DNA of 64,000 nucleotides. Origin: an uncultured bacterium. GTDB lineage: Bacteria > Chloroflexota > UBA5177 > JANWHV01. Shown piece after piece: positions 48,286-63,638 of this stretch. The stretch is taken from NCBI GenBank assembly GCA_963827235.1, contig CAWHAE010000015.1, forward strand, positions 32,001 to 96,000. The letters run 5' to 3'. How positions within the stretch are numbered: the first letter of the stretch is position 1; each line of letters starts with the position of its first letter. The notes beneath the pieces are model-generated. The model saw only the letters and a program-made list of their open reading frames with translations. It ran no database searches and had not been told where the DNA came from. Both the position numbers and the translations under genes were made by a program.

Positions 48286-49179
48286 TCAGCGATTCGGCGC
48301 CACCGGAGCTAGAGTAGCCCGCTCAGCACGCAGCAGTACGTGCACAATCGACGCATCGGCATCACTACCAACAGCCTGCGCGTACATGGCCTCAAAGGCT
48401 GCAGCCAAGGCGGCACCGTAGGGGTGGAGACCGAAGTGCGGCGTTTGGTGATCGACCGCCCACTGGTAGTATCGATTCGTCGCTTCGCCCGCGCGGGCCA
48501 GTGTCGCCAGAGTAGCTCTGCCATGGTGGACGAGATAAGCATGGCTCCGAAACGGAAACGAGAGTATGCGCTGAGCCTGCGCAGCCACATCGTGCTGCAG
48601 GTGCCGCGCGGGGTCACCGTCTTCCAGAAAAGGACGATGCCGCGGCTGCCAGACTGCTGCCGGCTCGAACAGCAGGCTGTTCAGGGCTACCGGCCGTTCA
48701 GTCAGCTGCGGGCCTTGCGCATCGCCGTCGTCCGGCTCGCCGGCAAGCACTGCCCCCGTGCTCGCGAGTGCCGCGACGGCCGCGGTCAGGGTGTCCGAGC
48801 GGAGGAGATACACGTCCGTATCGAGGACCCACACCAGATTCAGATCGAGGGCACCGCTGCCCTGCAGCGCCGCGAGGTGGTTGACTCCTTGCGTGAGCGC
48901 TGGGCCGTGGTAGCGTTGCTGGTCGTTCACAATCGGTTCGACCAGGCCCGCCTCACCCAGCGCGGCGAGCAGCGACCGCGATCCATCAGTCGAGGCATTG
49001 TCGACGACGACGACAGCCTGGATTGCTCCGGGGGTAAGGACGCATCGGAGGCCGAAGAGCAAGCGGGCGAGCAGGTGCCGGGTATTGTAGTTGACCGCCA
49101 CCACGCCCACCCTCGGTGGCTCGTCCCGCCGGACGCGTGTAAGCACTGGCCATGGGCGCATCGGCTCGTCTCCTACCAT
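48286..49179 (-). CDS. Glycosyltransferase family 2-like protein
   Basis: VVAVNYNT, VVVDNASTDGS, LDTD (DxD). Confidence 0.75.
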   Translation of the reverse strand: MVGDEPMRPWPVLTRVRRDEPPRVGVVAVNYNTRHLLARLLFGLRCVLTPGAIQAVVVVDNASTDGSRSLLAALGEAGLVEPIVNDQQRYHGPALTQGVNHLAALQGSGALDLNLVWVLDTDVYLLRSDTLTAAVAALASTGAVLAGEPDDGDAQGPQLTERPVALNSLLFEPAAVWQPRHRPFLEDGDPARHLQHDVAAQAQRILSFPFRSHAYLVHHGRATLATLARAGEATNRYYQWAVDHQTPHFGLHPYGAALAAAFEAMYAQAVGSDADASIVHVLLRAERATLAPVAPNR

Positions 49180-49597
49180 GAGCCGCAGCCTCTCTTTCCA
49201 TCATGGCACGCCCAGCCGGCTCGTGTGTCAGGAAGCGTGCTATCTCAGTCCCGACACACAACAGCAACCACCGCGTGACCGGTGCTGTCATTGACGCAGC
49301 GACGGCCCGTACGTGCTGCTTGCCGGCGCATTTCATCCCCGTATCGTATCTCTAGCTGCTATTGGCACGCAGGGCGGTCCTGATACGCTTCACCTCGTCG
49401 CACAACACTCCACGCAGAACGATCAGTCCATATCCAGTTCAGCTAGACTCGCCTGGCGATGTGCAACAGGCGTCTCTGGAAGCACGAGTCTGGCTGCTCG
49501 GCACTGCTCGAGCTGTATGCTCAGTGTGGCACGCCACCAACGGACAATCATCAGCCGGCGGGCTGAGTAGCACTCGAGACAGGGCAAGTACACTGAG

Positions 49598-51784
49598 ATG
49601 AGTTCTGGCGGCTACTCATGGGAGCGCGTAGTGGCTCATCGCTCGATCGACACCGTACTCGCCGGGCGATCGGACCCTTCGCCGGTGGCCGCCGGCGCGG
49701 CTTCAGCTTCGTGGAGTGCGGCCCGCGCCGGTGCTCCGCCGTGCGGCAGCCCGCCGTGCCCCGATCTCTGCCGGCGACCGCCGAACCGGTTGCTGAAGCG
49801 CCTGCCCGCAGCGGCACTCGCCGCCGTGCTCGTGTTTTCGCTGGCGGCCTGCTCCGCCGGCGGCGCCACACCCGCGGCGGCCGGCCCGGCCCTCACCCTC
49901 CAGGCCGGTGAGCGAGGGATACCGATCAGTCCGACTCTGTTCGGCCTCATGTTCGAGGAGATCAACCACGCGGGTGACGGCGGCATCTATGCCGAGCTGC
50001 TGGCCAACCGCGCTATGCTCGACAATTCGCCTCGCGCCTCGCCCGATGAGCAGGATTCGACGCCGAGCACAGATCCGTGGGTGCTGGATTCGACCGGCCA
50101 GGCGTTCGGCTCAGTCGGTCTCGACACCCAGGATCCGGTGAACACGACGGCGCTCACCGAGAGCCTGCGCCTGGGGATCACACGGGTTGGGCCTGGCGAG
50201 CGCGTGGGCGTGGTCAATTCCGGCTACGGCGGCATTCCGGTGTGGCCGCGCACCACCTATCGCGTCTCCTTCTACGCACGCAGCGGGGACGGCTTCAAAG
50301 GGCCGCTCACGATCAGCCTGGAGAGCGCGACGACGAACAAGGTCTTCGTCTCCGCGACGGTACCTGGGGTTACCACCCGCTGGCGACACTATGCGATGAC
50401 CCTGACCACGCCCGGAGGCTTTGCGCCTAGCGAGGACAACCAGTTCGTGATCGCGGCAACCCACATAGGCACGATATGGCTCAGCCTGGTCTCGCTCTTC
50501 CCGCCCACGTGGAACGATCGGCCAAACGGCATGCGCATCGATCTGATGCGCGATCTGCTGGCCCTTCACCCCGCCTTCCTGCGCATCCCGGGCGGCAACT
50601 ACCTGGAGGGCCAGACGTTCGCCACGCGGTTCATCTGGCAGACCACTATTGGCGACCTGTCGTCACGTCCCGGCCATCTCGACGATGCGTGGGGCTACCG
50701 CTCCACCGACGGCCTGGGCTTGCTCGAGTACCTGGAATGGTGCCAGGACCTGCACGTGCTGCCCGTGCTGGCGGTGTTCGCCGGATACACCCTCTCGGGC
50801 AACTACGTCGAGGCAGGTCCGGCCCTGAGGCCGTACGTACAGGACGCCCTCGACGAGCTGCAGTATGCCACCGGCTCGACGTCGACCACGTGGGGAGCCA
50901 GGCGAGCCGCGGACGGCCATCCGGCACCTTTCAAGGTACCGTACGTGGAGATCGGCAACGAAGACTTCTTCGACCGATCGGGCAGCTACGACGGCCGGTT
51001 CGCCCAGTTCTACGATGCCATCCGCGCCACCTACCCGTCGATCAAGCTGATCGCCACCTCCACGGATGCCACCAGCCGGCGGCCGGATCTGGTCGATCTG
51101 CACTTTTATGAGACGCCCGACTGGTTCGCCGCCCATACTGATTACTTCGACCGCTACAGCCGCGAAGCGCCCAAGGTGCTGGTGGGAGAATATGCCGCGC
51201 ATACACCGGATAGCTCGCTGAACGGCGGGCCTTCGACCCTGGGCACCGCCATCGGCGAGGCAGCCTGGCTGACCGGTTTGGAGCGCAACTCGGACGTGGT
51301 GGCAATGGCCTCGTATGCACCCCTCTTCCAGAACGTGCAGCCCTCCCAGTCCCAATGGACCCCGGATCTGATCAGTTATGACAACCTGAGCAGCGCCGGC
51401 TCGCCATCCTACTACGTGCAGCAGCTCTTCAGCCTGAACCACGGCGACGTGGTTGTTCCTGCCGATCTGAGCGGCACGGCGCCGCTGGCCTACGTCGCCA
51501 GCAGAGACAGCCGCGGCAGTGCCCTGTATCTGACGGTGGTGAACAGTGGCACGGCGGTGGTGACGGCCCGCATCGCGGTCGACGGCGTTTCGTCCGTGGC
51601 CGCCCGCGGCACCGTCACGGTGCTCACGTCGGCGAGCGTGAACGACCAGAACACCCTGCAAGCGCCTACCACCGTGTATCCCGTAACGCGAACCGTCTCG
51701 ACCCTCGGACGCTCGTTCTCCTATGCCATCAGGCCGAGCTCCGTCACCGTGTTTCGCCTGTCGACGGTGCCGGCGGGGCCCTGA
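49598..51784 (+). CDS. GH51 alpha-L-arabinofuranosidase, probable lipoprotein
   Basis: FEEINHAGDGG, RIPGGNYLEG, EIGNED (acid/base), VGEYA (nucleophile), SYAPL. Lipobox LAAC; true start possibly TTG at 49790. Confidence 0.88.
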   Translation: MSSGGYSWERVVAHRSIDTVLAGRSDPSPVAAGAASASWSAARAGAPPCGSPPCPDLCRRPPNRLLKRLPAAALAAVLVFSLAACSAGGATPAAAGPALTLQAGERGIPISPTLFGLMFEEINHAGDGGIYAELLANRAMLDNSPRASPDEQDSTPSTDPWVLDSTGQAFGSVGLDTQDPVNTTALTESLRLGITRVGPGERVGVVNSGYGGIPVWPRTTYRVSFYARSGDGFKGPLTISLESATTNKVFVSATVPGVTTRWRHYAMTLTTPGGFAPSEDNQFVIAATHIGTIWLSLVSLFPPTWNDRPNGMRIDLMRDLLALHPAFLRIPGGNYLEGQTFATRFIWQTTIGDLSSRPGHLDDAWGYRSTDGLGLLEYLEWCQDLHVLPVLAVFAGYTLSGNYVEAGPALRPYVQDALDELQYATGSTSTTWGARRAADGHPAPFKVPYVEIGNEDFFDRSGSYDGRFAQFYDAIRATYPSIKLIATSTDATSRRPDLVDLHFYETPDWFAAHTDYFDRYSREAPKVLVGEYAAHTPDSSLNGGPSTLGTAIGEAAWLTGLERNSDVVAMASYAPLFQNVQPSQSQWTPDLISYDNLSSAGSPSYYVQQLFSLNHGDVVVPADLSGTAPLAYVASRDSRGSALYLTVVNSGTAVVTARIAVDGVSSVAARGTVTVLTSASVNDQNTLQAPTTVYPVTRTVSTLGRSFSYAIRPSSVTVFRLSTVPAGP

Positions 51785-51787
51785 GGG

Positions 51788-54136
51788 ATGACTCCTGCCG
51801 CCTACCCGACCGCACGCCCGTCCTGGCACAGCTATCTGCGGCTGCCGGCTAGGCGCCGTCTGCCGGCGTACCTGTTCATCTGGCTCTGCGGCCTGCTGTG
51901 CATCGGGCCGCTGGCGTACATCCTCATCCAATCGCTCACCTCGACGCCCAGGGGCCGGTTCGGTCTCTCGCCGGTTGCCAGCTACATCTTCATTCTGCAC
52001 AGCACGGCGCTCTGGAGCGCGTTCAAGAATACGGCCATTCAGGAAGGGATCCTCCTGACTACCACGATGTTCTTCTGCCCGCTCGCCGGATACGCCTATG
52101 CCAAGTTCACCTTTCGCTTCAAGGGCTTCTTCTTCGGCCTGACGATGTTGACCCTGTTCTTCGTGCCTATTGCCCAGACCATTCCGCTCTTGCTGGAGAT
52201 GAACGAGCTGGGCTGGCTTAACACCTATCAAGGCCTGGTGATACCCATGACCATCAGCTCGCTCGGCATCTTCTGGATGACCATGGTAATCCGGGGCGTT
52301 CCGGACGAGCTGATCCAGGCGGCGCGGCTCGACGGCTGCGGCATCTTCTCGAGCTGGTGGCGGATCGTTCTTCCGACCATCAGACCGGCGCTGCTGGCCC
52401 TGGCCTTTTTCACCTACATCACCGCCTATAGCGACTTCATGTGGCCGCTGCTCGTGCTTCCCGACAGCAGCATGCAAACGGTGTCGCTCTACCTCCAGTA
52501 CGCCGGCTTCAGCTTCTCGGGCGGCGGCGGTGGAGGAGGCGGCGGTGGATCGGCGGCGAACGTCGTGATCACGTCGCTACCCACCGTCCTCGTTTTCCTG
52601 GCCATGCGGCGCTACTTCATGCCGCAGTTGCTCAGGCGCGACGACATCGTGACGCCGGTGTACCTGGACGATGCCGGCGTGTTTCAACCGGCCGAGGCGC
52701 CGGGCGAACCCCTCCGTGCCGTGCGGCTTGCCGCGACGGAGTCCAGCGCCATGAGCCCAGCGGCGCCGTCCGCTTCGCGGGCCGAGACCGGCGGACCCCA
52801 GCCGGCCGTCTCCGTGCCGGCCGGCCTTCTTGCCCTGGCGGGCCTCCGCCGGTGGCAGGCAGTGCTGCCGGCGACGATCGTGCACTGTGCGGTGATAGCC
52901 TGCTGCACCTTCGCCGTCTATCTCACTGCGCTTCAGAACAGGCTGCATCTGGACGACGTCTACAAGGTGCTGGGCAACCCGGGCATTGAGAGTCTGCTGC
53001 CGATCCGGCGCTACTTCACCGATCCGCTCACCAGCGCGGCCGTGCCGAGCGAGGCGCAGTTCCGGCCGCTGGCCACACTCAGCCTGGCGCTCAACCACGC
53101 GCTCACGGGGGACAGCGTGCCCGGATATCATCTGGTGAATCTGATCGTGAGCGCGGTCACCGGCCTGCTGGTCTACTTTCTGGTACGCGAGCTGCTCGGC
53201 TATTGGTCCGCGATCCGCTTGCCCGGCTACCGCATCGACTTCCTGGCCATGATGGTGGGCTTGCTGGTAACCGTCCACCCGATCGCCGGGCTGCTCGTTA
53301 GCTACGTGTCCGGCCGTGATCTGCTGCTGATGGAGGCGTTTCTCTGTGCCTCGCTCCTCTGTTACGCGCGCATGCAGCGCGTGCACTACTTCGAAGAGCC
53401 GCGCTTCTTGCTGGAGGGGCGGCTGCTCGAGCGGCTGCTGCGGCGGTGGCTCGGCGGATCGCTCCTGAGCTGGGCGGCGGTGCTGGCTCTGTTCGAGCTG
53501 GCCCTGCTTTCAAAGGCCCAGGCCGTGATGGCACCGGCGCTGATCTTCGCTTTCGAGCTGACCCTGGGGAGGGGGAGCCTCTCCCGCGTGGCTCCCTACG
53601 CGCGCGTGCTGCCGTTTGCTCTGGTTGCCGCCGCGCACCTGTTCTACGTCGACGCCTACCTGCACTTCACGGTGTTGCCCGACGCACCGCTATTGGGGTT
53701 CGATGCCGAATGGACCTATCCGCTGACGCAAGCGCAGCTCAGCGTCACGCACTATCTGGCAAGCTTCGCCTGGCCGTTTGCCCTGCGGCAGGTGCCGGTA
53801 GTGGCCACCGTGCAGAGTCTGCTCGATCCCGGCGTGCTGATCGGCCTTGCGATGATCGTGGGAACGGTGGTCTGTGCCTGGCGCATCCGCCACGGCCGGC
53901 CGCTGCTGGCCTTCTGCATGCTCGCCTACTGGCTTGTGCAGAGCCCTGAATCCTCGTTCGTGCCGATGCTCCACAACGCCGCGGATTACCGGCCCTACCC
54001 GGCGAGTCCATTCCTCTTTCTAGCTCTGGCGCTGCTGATCGAGCGATTTCTCAAGCCGGCGCTGGCCACGGGCGTCATCCTGGGCCTCCTGGCCTTTTTC
54101 GCGATCGCCTCCGTGGTCATGAATGTGAGCTGGTAG
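51788..54136 (+). CDS. Carbohydrate ABC permease fused to a TMTC-like GT-C membrane glycosyltransferase domain
   Basis: aa 1-~280 are a MalG-like permease (AGYAYAK, PDELIQAARLDG). After a linker come HLDD, FRPL, YHLVN, VHP..VSYVSGR, LLSK. One uninterrupted ORF. Confidence 0.8.
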   Translation: MTPAAYPTARPSWHSYLRLPARRRLPAYLFIWLCGLLCIGPLAYILIQSLTSTPRGRFGLSPVASYIFILHSTALWSAFKNTAIQEGILLTTTMFFCPLAGYAYAKFTFRFKGFFFGLTMLTLFFVPIAQTIPLLLEMNELGWLNTYQGLVIPMTISSLGIFWMTMVIRGVPDELIQAARLDGCGIFSSWWRIVLPTIRPALLALAFFTYITAYSDFMWPLLVLPDSSMQTVSLYLQYAGFSFSGGGGGGGGGGSAANVVITSLPTVLVFLAMRRYFMPQLLRRDDIVTPVYLDDAGVFQPAEAPGEPLRAVRLAATESSAMSPAAPSASRAETGGPQPAVSVPAGLLALAGLRRWQAVLPATIVHCAVIACCTFAVYLTALQNRLHLDDVYKVLGNPGIESLLPIRRYFTDPLTSAAVPSEAQFRPLATLSLALNHALTGDSVPGYHLVNLIVSAVTGLLVYFLVRELLGYWSAIRLPGYRIDFLAMMVGLLVTVHPIAGLLVSYVSGRDLLLMEAFLCASLLCYARMQRVHYFEEPRFLLEGRLLERLLRRWLGGSLLSWAAVLALFELALLSKAQAVMAPALIFAFELTLGRGSLSRVAPYARVLPFALVAAAHLFYVDAYLHFTVLPDAPLLGFDAEWTYPLTQAQLSVTHYLASFAWPFALRQVPVVATVQSLLDPGVLIGLAMIVGTVVCAWRIRHGRPLLAFCMLAYWLVQSPESSFVPMLHNAADYRPYPASPFLFLALALLIERFLKPALATGVILGLLAFFAIASVVMNVSW

Positions 54137-54147
54137 CCCTCCGCAGC

Positions 54148-55278
54148 TCAGCTGCCGTGTCGCGAGTGCGCAGCGGCTTCGACCTTCCTTGCCGGCTCGG
54201 CCGCGACGGCGGTCGCCATCGCGCCGCACGATTCGCGCACTACCAGGTGCGTGTAGAGCACGGTCTTGATCGGCCTGGATGATTCGCCGCGCAGCAGTGC
54301 CTGGAGACGGCGCACCGCCTCCACGCCCATCTCGGCACGCGGCACGCTGACGGTGGTCAGCGGCGGCGTCGTATGCGCGCTTTCCAGGACGTCGTCGATA
54401 CTCACCACCGCCATGTCCCTGGGAATCTGCAGGCCCCGTTCCTTCAGCGCCTCCAGGGCACCGAAGGCGGTCTTGTCGCTGATCGCCACGACCGCCGTGG
54501 GAGGCTGATCCGCGTCCAGCAGATGCAGCATCTGCTGGTAGCCCTTCTGCCCGCCGGCATGATGGGTCGGCACGGGCATGAGCGAGCGATCGGCCGGGAT
54601 CTCGTGCTCGGTCAAGGCATCCAGATACCCTTCCTGGCGGTCGACCAGGCTCCTGTACTTTCGCGGACCGGTGAGCAGTCCGATGCGCGTGTGGCCGAGC
54701 TGGAGCAGGTGTCGCGTAGCCAGGTAGCCTGCGGTGACGTTGTCGGCGACGACGCAGTGCAGCGGCTGGTCGACGACGTAGTTGTCGACCAGCACGGCGG
54801 GCAGGCTGCTGGCCACCAATCGGCGAATGGCGCCGTCGGTCAGGTCGCCGCCGTTGGCCAGGATCATGCCGTCGGCCTCTCCGCGCAGGCTGTCGAGCAA
54901 GGCGTCGACGCCCGACTCGCCTCCCTCCAGCAGGTTGAGCATAACGCGATGCCTCTGCCGCTGGGCCTCGGTCTGTATGCCCTGCAGGATCTCGGAGTAG
55001 AAGATGTCGCGCTCGATCGGCTGCACCAGCCGCTCGGTGATGATGGAGACTGTGTAGCGCTCTTCGTCTCGCCGGGACCGCGAGCGCTGGACGTAGCCGA
55101 GCTGACGCATCACCGCGAGAGTTCGCGCGCGCGTCTCCTCGCTGACCCCGGGACGGCCGGTGGCCACCAGGGAAACGGCCGCCGCCGACACGCCGGCGGC
55201 ACGTGCGACGTCACGCATGCTTGGACGCCGCTCGCGGCTCAGCGACGGCTGCTCCAGGTGATCGCTCTCCGCACGCAC
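54148..55278 (-). CDS. LacI-family transcriptional regulator
   Basis: HTH MRDVARAAGVSAAAVS, HLLQLGHTRIG, PPLTTV. Confidence 0.92.
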   Translation of the reverse strand: MRAESDHLEQPSLSRERRPSMRDVARAAGVSAAAVSLVATGRPGVSEETRARTLAVMRQLGYVQRSRSRRDEERYTVSIITERLVQPIERDIFYSEILQGIQTEAQRQRHRVMLNLLEGGESGVDALLDSLRGEADGMILANGGDLTDGAIRRLVASSLPAVLVDNYVVDQPLHCVVADNVTAGYLATRHLLQLGHTRIGLLTGPRKYRSLVDRQEGYLDALTEHEIPADRSLMPVPTHHAGGQKGYQQMLHLLDADQPPTAVVAISDKTAFGALEALKERGLQIPRDMAVVSIDDVLESAHTTPPLTTVSVPRAEMGVEAVRRLQALLRGESSRPIKTVLYTHLVVRESCGAMATAVAAEPARKVEAAAHSRHGS

Positions 55279-55709
55279 TTCTTGATTCCGTCTCCCAACC
55301 ACTGTTGAGACATAATACAACCGGCCCGCGCGCTCCGGCAATCGACCATGTTTGCCAGGTGCCGCGTGGTCTGCATGGCACAGTTCTCCAGCATTGGCCT
55401 ATACGATACCACATTGCATACTGGATGTTTAGTAGTGGGATTCATCCCGCCATTCCGCGCGCTGGGCCTGCTTTCCGCATATCCGATGCGCCACGACACC
55501 GGGATTCATCCCGCTCGTCACCCTGGCTGAGCCCGTTTCCCGCTCATCTGAGCGGCCTTGGGCTCCAACCTGCCCGTCCCCGGAGCCAAGCCTGTTTCCC
55601 GCATATCCGAGCCATACCGGTCGGACACCAGCGTTTCACCTCGCTGTACCCCTTACCGGCTCGCTAAACAATCAGCGCGCTGTCTCGGGTTTGTTCAACG
55701 GCATGATGC

Positions 55710-55738
55710 TTGACATACATAAACACGGATGCTATGCT
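55710..55738 (+). promoter_or_regulatory. Sigma70-type promoter of the sugar ABC operon
   Basis: TTGACA(55710-55715)-17 nt-TATGCT(55733-55738). Confidence 0.7.
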
Positions 55739-55970
55739 CGTGTCGCCAACTCGGGGAAAGGAACATCTCGCCGGCCGCCCGTGCCGGAGGAGATTCCTAC
55801 CGAGGCGACGTGGCACTCATCCATATCCATTGCCAGGACCACGACGTGGAGAGAGGGGGTGGGCGGGCACAGAGTCGAGAGGTGAAGAAGCTGGTCATAG
55901 AGTCTGGCGCTATCATCGTGGCTCGTCGTTGGCACGAGGCAATGTGCCGATCAAACCCAAAGGGGGAGAT

Positions 55971-57349
55971 ATGGACCGCGAAGTAACCAGCATGCCCGAA
56001 GCGAAGAAGATCGAGCGCAAGACGTTCCTCAAGGGCGCCGCGGCCACCGCGGCGGCGGTAGCCGGAGCAGGCACGGTAGCCGGGATCGCAAAAGCCGCGC
56101 CGCGCGTCGAAGTGATAAGCTCGGCCCCCTCGGGCGAAGCTCTCATCTGGGTGAACACGAACCTGTTCAACGCGGGCCAGGTGGCCGCCTTCAACAAGGT
56201 CTATCCGAACGTCAAGATCACGCAGAAGGCGACCCTGTACGTGCCTGGCACGCCGAGCCTCTCCTCCCACCTCGTGACAGGCGTCGACGTTCCCGACGGC
56301 ATCTTCTTCATGGAGGATGCCTACCTTGGCCAGTTCGCGCCGAACCTGTATGACGTCACCAAGTACGTGGCGCCCTATGCGAGCAAGATCGCGCCCTACA
56401 AGCTGGCGGTCTCCAAGCAGCTGGGTAAGACGGTGGGCATTCCCTGGGACGTGGATCCGGCTTTCCTGATCTACAACAAGACTATCACCGACGCTGCAGG
56501 CGTCGACGTGAGCAAGATCGTGACGCGCGACGACCTCATCCAGGCGGCGCTCACGGTGCGAGTCGAAAGTGCCCACGTGCAAGTACTCCGATCGGCATCG
56601 GCGCCGATCAGGCCCACGTGCAGTTCATCGTCGAAGGCATGGCCTGGCAGCAGCACACCGGCATCGTGGACGCCAAGGGCAACCTCAACATCATGGCGCC
56701 GGAATACACCAACGCCTTCAACTACCTGGAGAAGAAGGCAAGAACAAGCTGGCGACCACGCTACTTCTTCGCCACGCCTTCCCTCTACAACGCGTGGAAC
56801 AAGGGCAGTGTGCTGCTTCACGGTCTTCGCCGACTGGTTCACGCACTGGAACGAGCCGGGCATGAAGCCGCTCTGGGGCAAGATCGGGTTGGCAAAGCAG
56901 CCGGTGTTCGACACCGGCCAAGGACAGCCCGTACTCCATGATGGGTGGCTCAGCCTACGTGGTGCCGCTCAAGGCCAAGAACCCGGAAGCGGGCGCCCTG
57001 TTCGGCACCTTCCAGCTCTTCGAGCCGGCCGCGCTGCAGGCCGGCAACGCCTCCAACATCTACGAAGGCATCCTTCCGTCTGCCGAGGCACTCTGGCCGG
57101 ACGTCAACCTGAATGCCTTCCGGCACAAGATGATCATCAACCCCTCTATCGACGAGCACAGCTTGCTGGTCACGGCTGCGGCTGGGCACACCCTCGAACT
57201 ACCGCTATCCGCCGTGGTACTCGCAGGCGTTCCCCTACTATGCCCCGCCGGTACTGAACGTGATCAAGGGCAAGATGAGCGCCGCGCAGGCCCAGCAGCA
57301 GATGTACAACGACGTATTGAACAAGGTGGTCAAGCGCTATAACGGATAG
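55971..57349 (+). pseudogene. Sugar ABC solute-binding protein with Tat-like signal, multiply frameshifted (possibly sequencing errors)
   Basis: ERKTFLKG signal, GIPWD, GGSAYVV, C-terminal IKGKMSAAQA. The coding frame switches several times between ~56550 and ~57190. Confidence 0.75.
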
Positions 57350-57432: not shown

Positions 57433-57680
57433 AACCCAGGTTGTGATTCTGGTCGTGACTCAATCGGTGGCGAATCGCAGAGGAATCTGCTATGGCGTTT
57501 GTTCCCGGGAGCGCGCGGACGGAGCGTATGCTTGCGCTCCCGGGCTACACGCTGGCTTCTGGGCGAGTCCGCGTGTGATAGCGGTAGTCCGTGGCCCCAG
57601 AGTCCGCCGATTCGGGTGTCGGAGAGTTCTGGCTTGAGTGGGTGTATGGTGCCGACGAGGCCAAGACAGGGCAGGCGGAC

Positions 57681-58619
57681 ATGACTGAGCGCCGAAGCGC
57701 AGTTCTCGTTTCCCCTTCATCCCCTTCACAGAACAGTGGATATATGAGGCGCGTGCGGCTCATCCGCACGACTGCGCCCTACGTGTTCATCGCGCCGTTC
57801 TTCATCATCTTCTTCGCCTTCTTCGCCTATCCCGTCGCCTACTCGTTCTACGTCAGCCTGCACGCGTACACGGGGCAGGGCACGATGAAGTGGGTCGGCT
57901 GGGGCAACTATAACTTTGCCCTTTCCGACAACTACTTCTGGGGGGCGCTGGAGAATACCGGCTTCTTCTGGCTGTCGGTGCCGATCACGGTCTTTCTCGC
58001 GCTGATCCTCGCCGTGATCTGGAACCGGCCCGGCATGCTCGGCCGCAGCGTCCTGCTGGTGCTGTTTCTCATGCCCACCGTTATCTCCGTCGTGGCCATT
58101 TCGGTGGTGTTCAAGATCCTCTATGACCCGACCGCCGGGCCGGTCGATACGGCCCTGGGGTGGCTGGGCATCCCGCCGGTCGACTGGCTTAACGACGACA
58201 CCTCGGCGCGGTTCGGCCTGCTGATCCTGCGTATCTGGGAGACGCTCGGCCTGGGCATCCTGTTCATCGCCTCATCCCTGCAGGCCATCTCCCAGGACTT
58301 CTACGACGCTGCCGCCGTGGACGGCAGCGGGCCGATGCGTACCTTCATCTCCATCACCGTGCCGCTGCTGGCGCGTACCATCCTGTTCCTCACCGTGTGG
58401 TACACGCTGACGGCCCTGAGCCTCTTCGCCGAGCCGCTGCTGGTGATGAGTAACGGTGGTCCTGACAACTCGACCGTGACGCTCGGTCTGTATCTATTCC
58501 TGAAGGATGTAAACCTCGATCTCGGCACAGCGTCGGCCGTCTCCTTCTTGACCACGGTCGTCATGATGATCATGTCGGTGCTGCTGTTCCTGGGTGCGCG
58601 CCGCTGGACGAGAGAGTAG
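57681..58619 (+). CDS. Carbohydrate ABC permease (MalF/UgpA-like)
   Basis: YVFIAP, VGWGNY, LQAISQDFYDAAAVDG, FISITVPL. Confidence 0.92.
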   Translation: MTERRSAVLVSPSSPSQNSGYMRRVRLIRTTAPYVFIAPFFIIFFAFFAYPVAYSFYVSLHAYTGQGTMKWVGWGNYNFALSDNYFWGALENTGFFWLSVPITVFLALILAVIWNRPGMLGRSVLLVLFLMPTVISVVAISVVFKILYDPTAGPVDTALGWLGIPPVDWLNDDTSARFGLLILRIWETLGLGILFIASSLQAISQDFYDAAAVDGSGPMRTFISITVPLLARTILFLTVWYTLTALSLFAEPLLVMSNGGPDNSTVTLGLYLFLKDVNLDLGTASAVSFLTTVVMMIMSVLLFLGARRWTRE

Positions 58620-58653
58620 AGACGGGAGACTTCAGCGTGCACGGAGATCGGCC

Positions 58654-59538
58654 ATGAGCATCGCACTCGAGATGAAGTCGCATCGCAGACGACGGGCCCT
58701 CACGCCTACTCGAGTCGGCGGTGTGCTGCTGCTGGTCCTGGCTTGGGTCATCGGGCTCATCTGCGTCTTTCCCCTCGCCTGGACCACATGGGCGTCTTTC
58801 CGCCCGGATTCGAGCTTTCTCAGTAACCCATTCGCCGTCAACGTGCACGAGCTGATGGCGAGCAACTACTCGAGCGCTTGGAACCAGAGTGACTTCAATA
58901 CCGGTTTCAAGAACAGTGCCGTGCAGGTTACAGTCATCCTGGCTACCACGCTGTTCTTCTGCCCGCTCGCCGGCTACGGCTTCGCCAAGTTCAACTTCCG
59001 GGGCAAGAGCTTCTTGTTCGGCTTGATGATGCTGACGCTCTTCTTCGTTCCCATTACCCAGTACATCCCTCTGCTCCTCGAGCTGAACAATTTCGGCTGG
59101 CTCGATACCTACCACGGGCTGGTCATTCCCCTGCTGATCAGCTCCCTGGGCATCTTCTGGATGAACGGCGTGATCGCCGGCATCCCCAATGAGCTGCTGC
59201 ACGCGGCACGCGTGGACGGCTGCGGCCTGTTCTCGACCTGGTGGCGCGTGGTCATGCCCGTGATCAGGCCGGCCCTGGTGAGCCTGGCTGTGATCACGTT
59301 CCTGGGGACCTACAACGACTATTTCTGGCCGCTGCTCGTCGTGCCCGCGCTGCCCACGGTGCAAATCACATTAGGCACGCTGGCGACGACGCTGTTTGCG
59401 CAGGCGCAGACCACCACGCAAAGCTGGGGCGCCTTGCTAGCCGGCAGCGTCATCGTGTTCGCGCCGACCGTGATCGTCTTCCTCGCCATGCAGCGTTTCT
59501 TCCTGCGCGGTGTGTTGCAGGGCAGTCTCAAGGAATGA
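58654..59538 (+). CDS. Carbohydrate ABC permease (MalG-like)
   Basis: AGYGFAKFNFRG, PNELLHAARVDG, NDYFWPL, QRFFLRG. Confidence 0.92.
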   Translation: MSIALEMKSHRRRRALTPTRVGGVLLLVLAWVIGLICVFPLAWTTWASFRPDSSFLSNPFAVNVHELMASNYSSAWNQSDFNTGFKNSAVQVTVILATTLFFCPLAGYGFAKFNFRGKSFLFGLMMLTLFFVPITQYIPLLLELNNFGWLDTYHGLVIPLLISSLGIFWMNGVIAGIPNELLHAARVDGCGLFSTWWRVVMPVIRPALVSLAVITFLGTYNDYFWPLLVVPALPTVQITLGTLATTLFAQAQTTTQSWGALLAGSVIVFAPTVIVFLAMQRFFLRGVLQGSLKE

Positions 59539-59542
59539 CAGA

Positions 59543-61039
59543 GTGATACAGGCACAAGTTCATCTCGATACGGAACATAATGCCGGTCCGATCGACCGCC
59601 GGATCTTCGGAGGCTTCCTGGAGCACCTCGGACGTGCGGTCTACGAGGGCGTCTACGATCCCGGAAGCGCGCTGGCCGATCAGCATGGCTTTCGACGCGA
59701 CGTGGCCGATAGCCTGAGCGCGCTGGAGATGCCCGTGGTCCGCTATCCCGGCGGCAACTTCGTGAGCTGCTACGACTGGAAGGACGGCGTCGGACCGAGA
59801 GAGGCGCGGCCGAGCCGCCCGGACTACGCCTGGCGGTCTATCGAGACCAACCAGTTCGGCACCGACGAGTTCATGGACTGGTGCAAGATGCTCGGCACGG
59901 AGCCCATGCTGGCAGTCAATCTCGGCACGGGCAATACGGCGGGCGCTGCACAGCTTCTGGAGTACTGCAACCTGGCGGGCGGCAGCTACTGGGCCGACCA
60001 GCGCCGCCGGCATGGGCACGCCGACCCCTACAGGGTGAAGCTGTGGTGCATGGGCAACGAGATGGACGGCCCCTGGCAGGCGGGGCACGTGCCCGCCGGC
60101 GTCTACGCGCAGCGGGCGGACCAGGCGGCAACCATGATGAAGGGGCTCGACCCGAGCATCGAGACCGTCGCCTGCGGCTCGTCCCATCGCAACATGCCGA
60201 CCTATATGGAGTGGGATCGCGCGGTGCTGGAGTATTGCTGGGAGCACGTCGACTATATCTCCGCCCACCGGTACAGCCATAACCGCGCCGACGACAGCGC
60301 CTGGTTCCTGGCCGAGGGCCTGGAGATCGATCGCGTGCTCGACGACTACGCCGGCCTGCTGACCTACGTGCGCGGCGTGAAGAAGAGCGACAAGAAGGTC
60401 TTCCTGTCGTTCGATGAGTGGAACGTCTGGTACAAGGATCGGGCCGATGACGGCCGGTGGGCGGCCGCGCCACACCTGCTCGAAGAGGTCTACAACCTGG
60501 AAGACGCCCTGGTCTGCGCCCAGTACCTGACCGGCTTCCTGCGCCACGCGGACACTGTGAAGATCGCCTGCATCGCCCAGATCGTGAACGTGATCGCGCC
60601 CATCCTCACCCGGAGCGATGGACTCCTGGTGCAGGCGACCTACTACCCATTCCGCATGATCTCGCGGTGCGCCCGCGGCGAGGCACTGAAGCCCGTGGTC
60701 TGCTGTCCGACCTATAAGGCGGGCGAGCGGGGCGAGGCGCCGGTGCTGGACTGCGCGGCGAGCTACGATGCGGCGACCGGATCGGCCGCGGTATTCATCG
60801 TCAATCGGCATCTGCAGGACGACCTCGAGGTGACGGTGGACGTGGCGGACCGGCAGCTGGCCGGCATCGCCGGCCTCGAGGTGCTAGGCGGCGGGGACGT
60901 GAAGGCCGCGAATAGCTGGGAGCACCCGCACGCCGTATCGCCCGTCAGGGGCGAGGCGGCGCTCGACGGCGGTGTGGCGCGCATGCGCATCCCGGCGCCC
61001 GGTTTGGCGGTGCTGCGCCTGGAGACTCGCCGGGCGTAA
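59543..61039 (+). CDS. abfA: Intracellular GH51 alpha-L-arabinofuranosidase
   Basis: FLEHLGRAVY, RYPGGNFVS, GNEMDGPWQ, FDEWNVWY, AQIVNVI; no signal peptide. Confidence 0.92.
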   Translation: MIQAQVHLDTEHNAGPIDRRIFGGFLEHLGRAVYEGVYDPGSALADQHGFRRDVADSLSALEMPVVRYPGGNFVSCYDWKDGVGPREARPSRPDYAWRSIETNQFGTDEFMDWCKMLGTEPMLAVNLGTGNTAGAAQLLEYCNLAGGSYWADQRRRHGHADPYRVKLWCMGNEMDGPWQAGHVPAGVYAQRADQAATMMKGLDPSIETVACGSSHRNMPTYMEWDRAVLEYCWEHVDYISAHRYSHNRADDSAWFLAEGLEIDRVLDDYAGLLTYVRGVKKSDKKVFLSFDEWNVWYKDRADDGRWAAAPHLLEEVYNLEDALVCAQYLTGFLRHADTVKIACIAQIVNVIAPILTRSDGLLVQATYYPFRMISRCARGEALKPVVCCPTYKAGERGEAPVLDCAASYDAATGSAAVFIVNRHLQDDLEVTVDVADRQLAGIAGLEVLGGGDVKAANSWEHPHAVSPVRGEAALDGGVARMRIPAPGLAVLRLETRRA

Positions 61040-61057: not shown

Positions 61058-63460
61058 TCAGCTCATGTGCAGGATCTCGCCGCCGGTGCCGACGGCGACG
61101 CAGGTAGTGGCGCGAGTACAGGCCACACCGTTCAAGACCGCGGTCTTGCTCGCGCCGGCTGCCACCTGACTCGTCCAGGTCCTTCCCCCGTCCGCGGTGG
61201 TCAGGATGGTGCCGTACTGGCCCACGGCGGCGCAGAAGGCGGCGCCGGCGCAGCTCACCGCGTGCAGCGTGCTGCCCAGCACGACGGCGTCGAACGAGGC
61301 ATAGCTGGACCACGTCGTGCCGCCGTCGTGGCTGCTCAGGATGGTTCCGTCGTAGTCGCCGCCCACGGCAATGCACATCTGCGGGCTCGGACAGCTCACG
61401 CCGGTCAGCGTCGTCTCTTTGGTGCCCGACTGTCGGCTTGCCCAGGTCGTGCCGCCGTCCTTGCTGACCAGGATGGTGCTGTCGTTGCCCACGGCCAGGC
61501 AGAAGGTGATGCTCGGGCAGCTCACGGCTGCCAGCGCAGCGGTGCCGGCCGCCAGGCGGCCCGTCCAGCTCTTGCCTCCGTCCGCGGTGGTCAGGACGGC
61601 GCTGCCGCCTATGCCGGCGCTGCCCACGGCGACGCAGCGGCCGGTGCTCGGGCAGCTCACCCCGTTGAGGAATGTATCGGGCGCCGGCGCCGGGCTCGTC
61701 CAGCTCGTCCCGCCGTCCGTGCTGACCAGGACGCCGTGCATGAGGGCGGCCAAGCACGTGCTCGCGGTCGGACATGCGACGCCATAGAGGCTGGAGTCGC
61801 TACCCGAGCGGCGGCTGCTCCAGCTATGGCCCTGGTCGGTGGTCACGAGCACGGCACCGTCGTCGCCGGCTGCCAGGCAGAAGCTCGATCCGGCGCAGCC
61901 CACGGCGCGCAGGCTCTGCGAGATGCCCGTGCTACCGCGGCTCCACGTGCTGCCCCCGTCCGCGCTGATGAGGAGGGTGCCGTTCATGCCAGCGGCCAGG
62001 CAAAGGCCGCTGCTCGGGCAAGCCACGCTATACAGGTTGTTGTCGGTGCCCGAGGTACGGCTCGTCCACGTGGCGCCTCCGTCGGTGCTGGCCAGAATGG
62101 TACCACTGTCGCCCACGGCCAGGCAGCTGCCGCTCGTGGGACAGGCAATGCCGTGCAGGGCGCTATAGACATCGGAGGGCCTCTTGCGGGCGCTCCACGA
62201 GGCGCCGCCGTCCGCGCTCGCCAAGATGCTGCTATCACCGCCGGCGAGGCACAGGCTGCTGCTCGGGCAGGTCACGGCGTAGAGGTCGTCGCTGGTGCCC
62301 GAGGTGCGGCTCGTCCACGTGGTGCCGCCATCGACGCTGGCCAGGATGGTGCCCTCGTCGCCCACCGCGATGCAGGCGACCGTACTCCGGCAGGTGACGG
62401 CTTCCAGCATCTTGGTGGTGCCCGGCGCGTGGCTCGTCCAGCTGGCGCCGCCATTCTTGCTGCTGAGCACGGCGCCGTCTTCGCCCACTGCCATGCACCA
62501 CGAGAGGCCGGCGCAGGTGATGCCGCGGAAGTCCCCGGAATCCGGGCCGATGGCATTCGAGGTCCAATCGACGTTACCTCCCACGGTGGTCAGGGCGACC
62601 CCGGCCGGGCGGTCGCTCGAGCCCACGAGCACGCAGGTACCTGCGGCCGCGCAGCTGGCGGCGACCAGCTTTATCCCGCTGTGCAGGCTCGCCCGGCTCG
62701 TCCAGGTAGCACCGCCGTCGGCGCTGCCGGCCACGGGCGTATCGTCGCTCAGGCTTGAATCGAGCTTCCAGCCCACGGCCCGGCAGTCGCGCGCGCCGCC
62801 GCAGGCCACGCCGAAGAGGTCGAGGTTGGTGCCGGAGGCGCGGCTGCTCCAGGCAGCGGTGCCCGTGCCGGTGGAGACCGAGGTGGCTTTGGCGGGCGCC
62901 GTGCTCTCGAGCCAGTAGCCGCAGTTCGGCTTTGCGTCAGGTTTGGGCGTCCGTTGCTGCAGGCAGAGCTTGGTGCCACGCTGGTAGCGATCGATCGCCC
63001 AGCGAAAGGTCTGTACCGCCAGCGAGCCCTTCTTCGTGTAGTTGTACTTCGCGTTGCAGGTATCCTTGCTGACCACCGCGTTCTGGTCCGGCACGAGCGT
63101 GAGGCCGTCCTTGGTGGCGGACGCTTTCCCCTTGGTGTAGATGTAGTAGGAGGTGGTGCAGCTATAGAAGGAGGTCTGCAGAAGGCCGCCGAACACAAAT
63201 TGGCCATCGGCCGCAAAGGTATAGCGTTCGCCCGCCCCGGTAGGAGGGGCATATTCACCGGTCAGGGGATTGACGAAGGTGATGCCGGAGACCGTGCCGG
63301 CCGACCAGTTGCCGAGGAGAATCTGGGGAAGCGGCGCCCCTGCCGGCGCGGTGCCGGGCGAGGCAGTGCTGATCGCGCCCAGCGCGGTGTGAAGCGGCAC
63401 AGAGAAGACCGGGAGCAGACCAACCATCACACACGCCAGGAGAGCAGCACGGCGAAACAC
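61058..63460 (-). CDS. Secreted Ycf48/BNR-like double beta-propeller protein with CX5C repeats and an N-terminal beta domain
   Basis: Signal peptide; 14 repeats of V.C.....C.AVG..G.IL.S.DGG.TW; GTG start with SD ggagg. Confidence 0.8.
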   Translation of the reverse strand: MFRRAALLACVMVGLLPVFSVPLHTALGAISTASPGTAPAGAPLPQILLGNWSAGTVSGITFVNPLTGEYAPPTGAGERYTFAADGQFVFGGLLQTSFYSCTTSYYIYTKGKASATKDGLTLVPDQNAVVSKDTCNAKYNYTKKGSLAVQTFRWAIDRYQRGTKLCLQQRTPKPDAKPNCGYWLESTAPAKATSVSTGTGTAAWSSRASGTNLDLFGVACGGARDCRAVGWKLDSSLSDDTPVAGSADGGATWTSRASLHSGIKLVAASCAAAGTCVLVGSSDRPAGVALTTVGGNVDWTSNAIGPDSGDFRGITCAGLSWCMAVGEDGAVLSSKNGGASWTSHAPGTTKMLEAVTCRSTVACIAVGDEGTILASVDGGTTWTSRTSGTSDDLYAVTCPSSSLCLAGGDSSILASADGGASWSARKRPSDVYSALHGIACPTSGSCLAVGDSGTILASTDGGATWTSRTSGTDNNLYSVACPSSGLCLAAGMNGTLLISADGGSTWSRGSTGISQSLRAVGCAGSSFCLAAGDDGAVLVTTDQGHSWSSRRSGSDSSLYGVACPTASTCLAALMHGVLVSTDGGTSWTSPAPAPDTFLNGVSCPSTGRCVAVGSAGIGGSAVLTTADGGKSWTGRLAAGTAALAAVSCPSITFCLAVGNDSTILVSKDGGTTWASRQSGTKETTLTGVSCPSPQMCIAVGGDYDGTILSSHDGGTTWSSYASFDAVVLGSTLHAVSCAGAAFCAAVGQYGTILTTADGGRTWTSQVAAGASKTAVLNGVACTRATTCVAVGTGGEILHMS

Positions 63461-63638
63461 GATCAACCTCCCGACCACTGGGCCGGCGAGGTCCGGCTCG
63501 CCGGCATCGCAGGCAGACGGTGCCACCTATCAGCGCCAGTATAGATCGGCTCGGCTCGCTTGTCGCGGTGGGCGCTCTCCGGGACCTCGCCCGGCTTGGG
63601 GACATCTGGACCGCCATCAGGGTCTTTCGGGTATCTGT

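Follow-up and report, generated by a model that had tools for sequence, protein, structure and literature searches.

What is a glycosyltransferase fold doing at the end of an importer subunit? The membrane subunits of ATP-binding cassette (ABC) importers and the glycosyltransferases of the GT-C fold have each been well studied, and here both are found in one polypeptide, encoded by an open reading frame (ORF) of 782 residues on contig CAWHAE010000015.1 of assembly GCA_963827235.1, from an uncultured Chloroflexota bacterium. We analysed a stretch of 64,000 nucleotides of this contig (positions 32,001 to 96,000), which we call the window and to which coordinates refer unless another locus is named; the assembly is denoted G000. 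This two-domain inner-membrane protein proved to be real and conserved rather than an artefact or a singleton, and its gene is the second of a two-gene module behind a secreted arabinofuranosidase of glycoside hydrolase family 51 (GH51). The combination of an ABC permease and a GT-C domain in one polypeptide is apparently undescribed: no fusion of this type was known to the initial annotation of the locus, and our full-text literature searches, including those on bacterial and prokaryotic TMTC, likewise found no description of one.

The initial annotation had read one 782-residue ORF at 51788-54136, and both the ORF reading and the translation agree with it, with no internal stop. Three parts can be distinguished in the protein, a permease of about residues 1-284, a linker of residues 285-342, which is the Pro/Ala stretch noticed earlier between the two halves, and a GT-C fold of residues 343-782. 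The motifs HLDD (residues 387-390), FRPL, YHLVN, VHP...VSYVSGR and LLSK, which had been quoted for the C-terminal half, were all found in the translation, with the DD codons at 52952-52957 as given. The stop codon of the GH51 lipoprotein gene (51782-51784) and the ATG of the fused gene (51788) are separated by 3 nucleotides, the spacing already noted.

In a full-length AlphaFold2 model based on a 94-row alignment (mean predicted local distance difference test score, pLDDT, 82.6), the permease was moderately confident, residues 285-331 of the Pro/Ala-rich, cytoplasmic linker were disordered (pLDDT <50) and the C-terminal half was very confident. The permease end and the GT-C start lie on the same, cytoplasmic side of the model. 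The loops 170-198 and 278-358 are rich in Arg, the Gly-rich loop 219-252 contains neither Lys nor Arg, and the DD motif is located in the first outer loop of the GT-C domain. The predicted orientations of the two halves fit each other, with the permease end, the linker and the Arg-rich loops all placed in the cytoplasm.

Because the linker is poorly conserved and of low complexity, and because the contamination of the source assembly is estimated at 9.06%, one could suppose that two neighbouring genes had been read as one through a lost stop codon, a shifted frame or a wrong join within the linker. However, a further 6 full-length proteins, which come from several sources, share this single-frame architecture with linkers of differing lengths, and one of these proteins is encoded at a second locus in the same genome. 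In addition, two exact 151-nucleotide unitigs from one public sequencing run (X1) span 52461-52762, and no joint was seen there. The mapping of reads across 52600-52900 that the initial annotation had proposed was thus successful up to 52762, whereas read cover was next to nil over 52763-52900, which includes the rest of the linker; the public runs holding the sequence were two DNA runs with small shares (0.08 and 0.06), and no RNA run was listed. We regard the artefact as effectively refuted.

A word-seeded search of 5.8 billion proteins (8000 candidates scored, 29 hits) returned five full-length fused proteins, namely P0002 (71% identity, 100% coverage), P0004, P0005 and P0006 (56-57%) and P0007 (47%), along with the partial P0003 and P0008. 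When the GT-C half served as the seed instead, there were 16 hits at E<=1e-20, among them the additional P0182 (full-length, 769 residues, 54%), P0184 and the partial P0181, which is named by NCBI as a protein of a Chloroflexota metagenome-assembled genome (MAG). Further full-length fused proteins therefore total 6, at 47-73% identity, and P0003, P0008 and P0181 are partial; the architecture looked for elsewhere was thus found repeatedly. P0007 is encoded on contig C9 of G000, so that this assembly holds two copies. Across the clade, identity to the window protein was 52-82% in the permease, 52-72% in the GT-C domain and 23-39% in the linker, whose length varied between 26 and 59 residues, a pattern suggestive of two selected domains on a free tether.

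In a FastTree phylogeny of 95 GT-C domains, from which no row was dropped, the 9 fused proteins and P0032 formed one clade (support 1.0) with the tetratricopeptide repeat (TPR)-type protein P0033 as its sister; P0032, of 404 residues, is taken as a fragment. The single clade and the homologs down to 47% identity show the fusion to be old. The fused clade is also rare. Of the 150 best-scoring entries in a set of 1.84 billion representatives, only P0005 and P0007 have a GT-C domain behind a permease. The GT-C half was found in 1 of 21 genomes of the class (E<=1e-20) and in 1 of 401 genomes of a phylum sample (E<=1e-15), several of these genomes being incomplete, and the one was G000 each time. 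In a whole-protein search of 61 relatives (E<=1e-30), the matches outside G000 were permease-only, including those in four same-genus genomes. A single-protein scan of genome contigs gave 82 pattern matches, of which none was confirmed, and when the scan was repeated with an alignment it yielded two loci only, one in a Nitrospina MAG (36%) and one of Gemmatimonadaceae (27%). As a lead only, two ESM Atlas clusters of ~707 and ~718 residues (78 and 210 members, 99-100% with PF00528, mostly Chloroflexota) hint at a larger fused family, at a score of 0.87 that is below the 0.9 mark.

Is the N-terminal half still recognizable as an importer subunit? Pfam BPD_transp_1 (PF00528) matched residues 104-277 with 37 bits (cut-off 26.4), and NCBIfam UgpE matched residues 98-281 with an E of 3e-22, under the equivalog cut-off. 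The pLDDT of this half was only ~55-90; Foldseek aligned the model with the six-helix MalG-like fold of SugB (8hps_B, E 2.2e-6, TMt 0.68) and MalG (3rlf_G, E 6.2e-4); overall, SugB, AlgM2 and MalG chains were matched at E 2e-6 to 1e-3 and TMt 0.56-0.68. An EAA-type coupling loop (...QAARLDGCG...WWRIVLP...) is present and is conserved in 6/6 fused rows, its first position being Gln in the window fusion and His in the canonical local paralog. The coupling-helix stretch of type I importers is needed only for engaging the ABC ATPase, so that its conservation in all fused rows argues that the fused permease may still engage an ATPase. The outer loop between transmembrane helices 5 and 6 (TM5-TM6) is Gly-rich in all 6 aligned fused proteins and ordinary in the unfused paralog. 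A co-fold of two copies of residues 20-290 scored 0.21 against a mark of 0.42, which is evidence neither way on a homodimer of the permease half.

Residues 32-283 aligned with the unfused permease at 58594-59538 at 49% identity (129/261, E 9e-79), and the motif pairs quoted earlier for the two proteins were all recovered in this alignment. The initial annotation was therefore right to call them close paralogs, but its further proposal of a locally duplicated subunit did not hold. The window paralog, with 247.6 bits and 53% identity in the part that matched, is no nearer than an unfused paralog on contig C10 (50%, 256.4 bits), meaning that the permease half is not a recent local duplicate, and the age of the fusion also speaks against local duplication. 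Each of these two closest unfused paralogs is the MalG-type subunit of a locus with LacI, binding-protein, MalF-type, MalG-type and GH51 genes; on C10, GH43 and FGGY kinase genes are present as well. Since the closest unfused paralogs belong to arabinoside loci, the permease half derives from arabinoside importers. Apart from these loci, we observed in a metagenome a protein of 574 residues, P0010, which reads as a MalF-type and then a MalG-type permease in one chain and matches the permease half with 43% identity, 26% of the query being covered.

The C-terminal half, modelled alone by AlphaFold2, reached a pLDDT of 94.5 and a predicted template-modelling score of 0.93. Structure comparison of this model by VIA-align with 48,161 chains gave 20 chains of the GT-C fold at Z 20.2-10.5 (AglB, Pmt1-Pmt2, ALG12, ArnT, Pmt4, STT3, PglB, ALG3, PIG-U, AftB and others), the next match being FtsW at 6.4, and Foldseek was concordant, with GT-C-fold chains as its best rows down to rank 37. 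The GT-C fold expected of this half was thus recovered, and the fusion of a permease to a TMTC-like GT-C domain is borne out by Pfam, by fold matches and by homologs with the same architecture. A sequence search with the fused-clade profile against solved structures gave nothing relevant (best E 0.74, unrelated).

By sequence, the C-terminal half belongs to a family of 11,448 clusters at E<=1e-3, 121 of them at E<=1e-30. A typical member has 600-700 residues, with an N-terminal GT-C domain followed by TPRs, and TPRs were matched in 8 of 10 members scanned. The window protein has no TPR family match: its last residue, W782, is the point where P0009 (44% identical) runs on into TPRs, in agreement with the earlier remark that the repeats are absent. 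Other fusions occur in the GT-C+TPR family, namely P0086 (GtrA-GT-C-TPR, 934 residues), P0059 (GT87-GT-C-TPR-arylsulfotransferase, 1490 residues) and P0148 (GT-C-TPR-sulfatase, 914 residues).

The active-site state of the GT-C half was assessed at 27 columns conserved at >=85% in 86 unfused relatives, which were compared with 9 fused proteins. At 22 of the 27 sites the fused proteins are invariant (D390, R426, H497, R510, K576, Y656 and R735 included), and the window protein retains 26, among others D389, D390, N397, R426, P427, H497, P498, R510, K576, Y656, S722, S723 and R735. The acidic pair is largely kept, with D390 in 9/9 and D389 in 6/9 fused proteins, compared with 91% and 99% in the unfused relatives; Y506, T415 and N779 are each variable in 2-3 fused proteins. 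For the TMTC motifs M1-M7 we used Table 4 of PMC7801869 alone. By that table, the window protein has the DD of M1, an M2 reduced to QFRP, GRD in M3, K576 without the Glu in M4, W642 preceded by a variable residue in M5 and a DYRPY-like M7. The initial annotation had observed that the Glu residues of HPxxxE and SKE are substituted, which is correct but not specific to this gene, as the subfamily consensus reads HPVSG..VNY and LSKxNA. A supply of polyprenyl-phosphate-sugar donor is plausible, given the 6 GtrA-family loci in the genome and the fact that P0086 itself joins GtrA to GT-C and TPR domains. Taken together, the GT-C half is probably an active transferase, although this is not secure.

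The partner gene upstream is well defined. Both the catalytic ASD1_dom and the C-terminal Alpha-L-AF_C were matched in the GH51 protein, the translation of which begins with a hydrophobic leader ending ...LVFSLAAC and contains the stretches EIGNEDF and VGEYA, whose Glu residues we take to be the GH51 catalytic pair. A GH51 gene lies directly upstream in 3/3 loci where the DNA is visible (the window, C9 and the metagenome locus L020), so the GH51 neighbourhood that the initial annotation wished to see elsewhere was present each time. On C9 the fused copy directly follows a GH51 gene 67% identical to that of the window; the other neighbours there are genes for an ammonium transporter, an S53 peptidase, ArsA, DUF4037 and methionyl-tRNA synthetase (MetRS), with no other ABC gene. 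At L020:7296-8708, a GH51 leader with ~235 residues is joined in frame to the middle of the GT-C domain and the frame ends prematurely; this ORF is what a deletion has left of a GH51/fusion gene pair. The linkage can be extended to a further 2/2 cases, P0005 and P0182, by inference and not by sighting: the GH51 homologs P0192 (71%) and P0193 (68%) come from the same source and from contigs equal in size (10892 and 4651) to those of P0005 and P0182, respectively. Downstream genes are not conserved, being LacI in the window, an unassigned ORF of 386 residues on C9 and an M55 peptidase in L022. The remnant ORF of L020 is flanked by a GGDEF-EAL gene and ORFs without assignment.

With which subunits could the fused permease work? 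No MalF-type partner is encoded within 1.5 kb on the same strand at either fused gene. A tblastn census of G000 gave 79 MalF-type and 85 MalG-type loci, of which 9 are unpaired; all 9 are MalG-type, the two fused genes among them, and no MalF-type locus is unpaired. Any MalF-type partner would thus have to be shared, and if the fused permease works in an importer, both the MalF-type subunit and the ATPase must be borrowed. This sugar-ABC repertoire is very large. The assembly measures 8.0 Mb and same-genus assemblies ~4.4-5.4 Mb; at the contamination estimate given above, part of the ABC excess may be foreign.

The reading that we favour, tentatively and at somewhat less than an even chance, is that the protein serves as an alternative AraQ-type subunit of an importer and brings a GT-C glycosyltransferase, probably an active one, next to an arabinoside hydrolase and importer. 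The permease half would still act as an importer subunit in place of the ordinary AraQ-type subunit, together with a MalF-type partner and a shared ATPase encoded elsewhere, and the GT-C half would still be a transferase dependent on a polyprenyl-phosphate sugar, with its active site on the outer face. With the loss of the TPR arm that recruits acceptors, the acceptor may be found by proximity at the importer. The likeliest acceptor would be the co-encoded GH51 or a binding lipoprotein docking at the importer, and the hydrolase would thereby be modified, or held, at the site of uptake. In a bolder version, which we consider unlikely, the protein would found a new class of "enzyme-coupled" ABC importer. 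Docked to the outer face of the fusion, the secreted GH51 would replace a binding protein or stand next to one, and arabinose or arabino-oligosaccharides released from plant polymer would pass directly into the channel. The GT-C domain would transfer a lipid-linked sugar to the hydrolase, to the binding lipoprotein or to a glycan at the surface, and uptake and surface glycosylation would be physically coupled in one machine. The initial annotation had itself suggested that sugar transport might be coupled to surface glycosylation, or that the fusion might act as a sensor or scaffold; the conservation of the GT-C sites bears on these ideas only indirectly.

Several observations weigh against the favoured reading. 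On the transport side, both fused genes are unpaired MalG-type loci with no spare MalF-type locus for them, the C9 copy also lacks an adjoining binding-protein or ATPase gene, and the sole ABC neighbours of the window copy form a complete canonical locus ~3.5 kb downstream. No operator-like motif of >=11 nucleotides is shared between the intergenic regions 49150-49720, upstream of the GH51 gene, and 55300-55760, upstream of the neighbouring ABC locus, and the ordinary TM5-TM6 outer loop has been exchanged for a Gly-rich stretch in all 6 aligned fused proteins. The missing MalF-type partner of both genes, the lack of binding-protein and ATPase genes near the C9 copy and the Gly-rich loop also speak for a rival in which the permease half is a mere membrane anchor or dimerization module without a transport role, and the protein a GT-C enzyme whose six-helix N-terminal extension replaces the TPRs as the partner-binding device. 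However, the stretch that couples to the ATPase is kept in 6/6 fused rows and the permease half, at 52-82% identity across the clade, is constrained as strongly as the GT-C half, and we hold the anchor to be distinctly unlikely.

On the catalytic side, Pfam PMT_2 (PF13231) reached only 15 bits (cut-off 26.1) over residues 427-477. The model is insensitive for this GT-C subfamily: among 10 close relatives scanned, 5 match at E<=0.01 (17.6-25.4 bits), and those too are under the cut-off. The Glu of M4 and the Asp of M5, to which metal binding has been assigned in TMTC (Table 4 of PMC7801869), are absent; they are missing in the entire bacterial subfamily, so this is not decay of the fusion. Position 652 carries Ser in 9/9 fused proteins, whereas 96% of the 70 unfused relatives that are not gapped at this column carry His. 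At position 389, where 99% of the unfused relatives have Asp, P0002 has Gly, and P0007 and P0182 have Glu. The catalytic site may therefore be altered or relaxed. These two changes, together with the loss of the TPR arm, point to the main rival of our reading, a repurposed, non-catalytic GT-C half that would bind a lipid or glycan or act as a docking module and would hold GH51 or a glycolipid beside the arabinoside importer, much as PIG-U does in the glycosylphosphatidylinositol (GPI) transamidase. PIG-U has the GT-C fold without transferase activity, and its chains are among the structural matches (Z 16.3 and 15.7). Against this stand the 22 invariant family-conserved sites, the 26 retained in the window protein and a GT-C half as well conserved as the permease half; moreover, Asp to Glu is a conservative change, and Gly at D389 comes from one metagenome sequence only. 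We consider the non-catalytic module unlikely, though less so than the anchor, and retain the alternative importer subunit carrying a probably active transferase as the working interpretation.

The features of the locus are collected in Table 1. The neighbouring GT2 gene (48286-49179, minus strand) was considered as a donor synthase and rejected, because it has a weak Pfam GT2 match only, has no NCBIfam match and is absent at the C9 locus. The binding-protein position of the canonical locus is occupied by an ORF of 515 residues (55710-57257) without Pfam or NCBIfam matches at E<=1e-3; a sigma-70-like promoter match lies over its first codons, and the true start is therefore probably further downstream. 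Between LacI and the ABC genes (55437-55611), an exact 14-nucleotide near-palindrome occurs twice (55437-55450 and 55501-55514; 0/100 shuffles reach 2) and alternates with three copies of an 18-nucleotide element (55470, 55535 and 55594; 0/100 shuffles reach 3); the repeated sequences may be operators or regulatory repeats. Directly after the canonical arabinoside locus lies the gene for a BNR/Asp-box repeat protein of 822 residues (61058-63526, minus strand) with PSII_BNR and Sortilin-Vps10-like matches.

Table 1 Features of the fused gene and its surroundings in the window.
Feature	Positions	Strand	Evidence and remarks
Secreted/lipoprotein GH51-type alpha-L-arabinofuranosidase, 728 residues	49598..51784	+	Pfam ASD1_dom 2.1e-31, Alpha-L-AF_C 5.8e-31
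Fused ORF, 782 residues and stop	51788..54136	+	Single frame without internal stop; full-length fused homologs exist
MalG/UgpE/AraQ-type ABC permease domain (residues 1-284), six TM helices in the model	51788..52639	+	PF00528; Foldseek SugB, MalG; stretch VPDELIQAARLDGCG...WWRIVLP kept in 6/6 fused rows
Run of ten Gly codons, TM5-TM6 outer loop of the permease	52520..52549	+	Codon reading; Gly-rich loop in all 6 aligned fused proteins
Disordered cytoplasmic Pro/Ala-rich linker (residues 285-342)	52640..52813	+	pLDDT; low identity among fused homologs; unitigs 52461-52762
GT-C fold domain, TMTC/PMT_2-like, without TPR (residues 343-782)	52814..54133	+	AlphaFold2 model, VIA-align, Foldseek; 11,448 relatives at E<=1e-3
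DD motif (D389-D390), first outer loop of the GT-C domain	52952..52957	+	Translation; corresponds to TMTC motif M1 as listed in Table 4 of PMC7801869
LacI-family regulator	54148..55341	-	Convergent with the fused gene, divergent from the canonical ABC locus
MalF-type permease of the canonical arabinoside ABC locus; candidate partner of the fused permease	57591..58619	+	PF00528; genome without unpaired MalF-type locus
Unfused MalG-type paralog, 49% identical to the permease half	58594..59538	+	Pairwise alignment, Pfam
Second GH51, ArfA-like, 509 residues, canonical locus	59510..61039	+	NCBIfam ArfA 616.3 bits (cut-off 625); Pfam Alpha-L-AF_C

The combination of permease and GT-C domain is conserved, both halves are under selection and the pair is tied to a secreted arabinofuranosidase. 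With an active GT-C half, the fusion would offer a tractable bacterial way into the large uncharacterised TMTC-like family and show a new mode of acceptor choice, in which tethering to a transporter takes the place of TPRs. With an inactive one, it would be a bacterial case in which the GT-C fold has been turned to structural use as a subunit. In both cases, the fusion is relevant to how monoderm soil bacteria arrange the breakdown and uptake of polysaccharides at the membrane.

Compared with known systems, the GT-C half is closest to the uncharacterised bacterial TMTC-like GT-C+TPR proteins such as P0033 and P0009, with which it is homologous at 44-51% identity and shares the fold and the site set DD, (Y/F)RP, HP, RD, SK, PxSS and DYRPYP. 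Unlike them, the fusion has an N-terminal ABC permease instead of TPRs, Ser in place of His652 across the fused clade and, relative to P0009, an insertion of 23 residues at ~532-554. The animal protein O-mannosyltransferases TMTC1-4, which constitute CAZy family GT105, are detectably similar to the fusion (Gadus TMTC2, E 7.4e-5); the fusion differs from them in the lack of TPRs, and its lipid carrier would be bacterial. As far as the motifs in Table 4 of PMC7801869 go, the DD of M1, the RP of M2, the K of M4 and the W of M5 are kept, whereas the H-K of M2, the E of M4 and the D of M5 are absent; full-length prokaryotic sequences homologous to TMTC are mentioned in that paper. Solved GT-C enzymes have the same fold (Z 20.2 for AglB 3waj, 19.0 for Pmt1-Pmt2 6p2r, 18.3 for ArnT 5f15 and 18.2 for Pmt4 9e61), but identity to PMT, ArnT and AglB/PglB/STT3 is just 9-14%, and the fusion has no MIR or periplasmic domain. 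With the MalG, SugB, UgpE and AraQ subunits the fusion has in common PF00528, the coupling-helix stretch and the six-helix fold, and it differs from them in its 500-residue C-terminal extension, its Gly-rich outer loop and the genomic setting of its two copies, both of which stand without an adjoining MalF-type gene and one of which, on C9, also stands without a binding-protein or ATPase gene.

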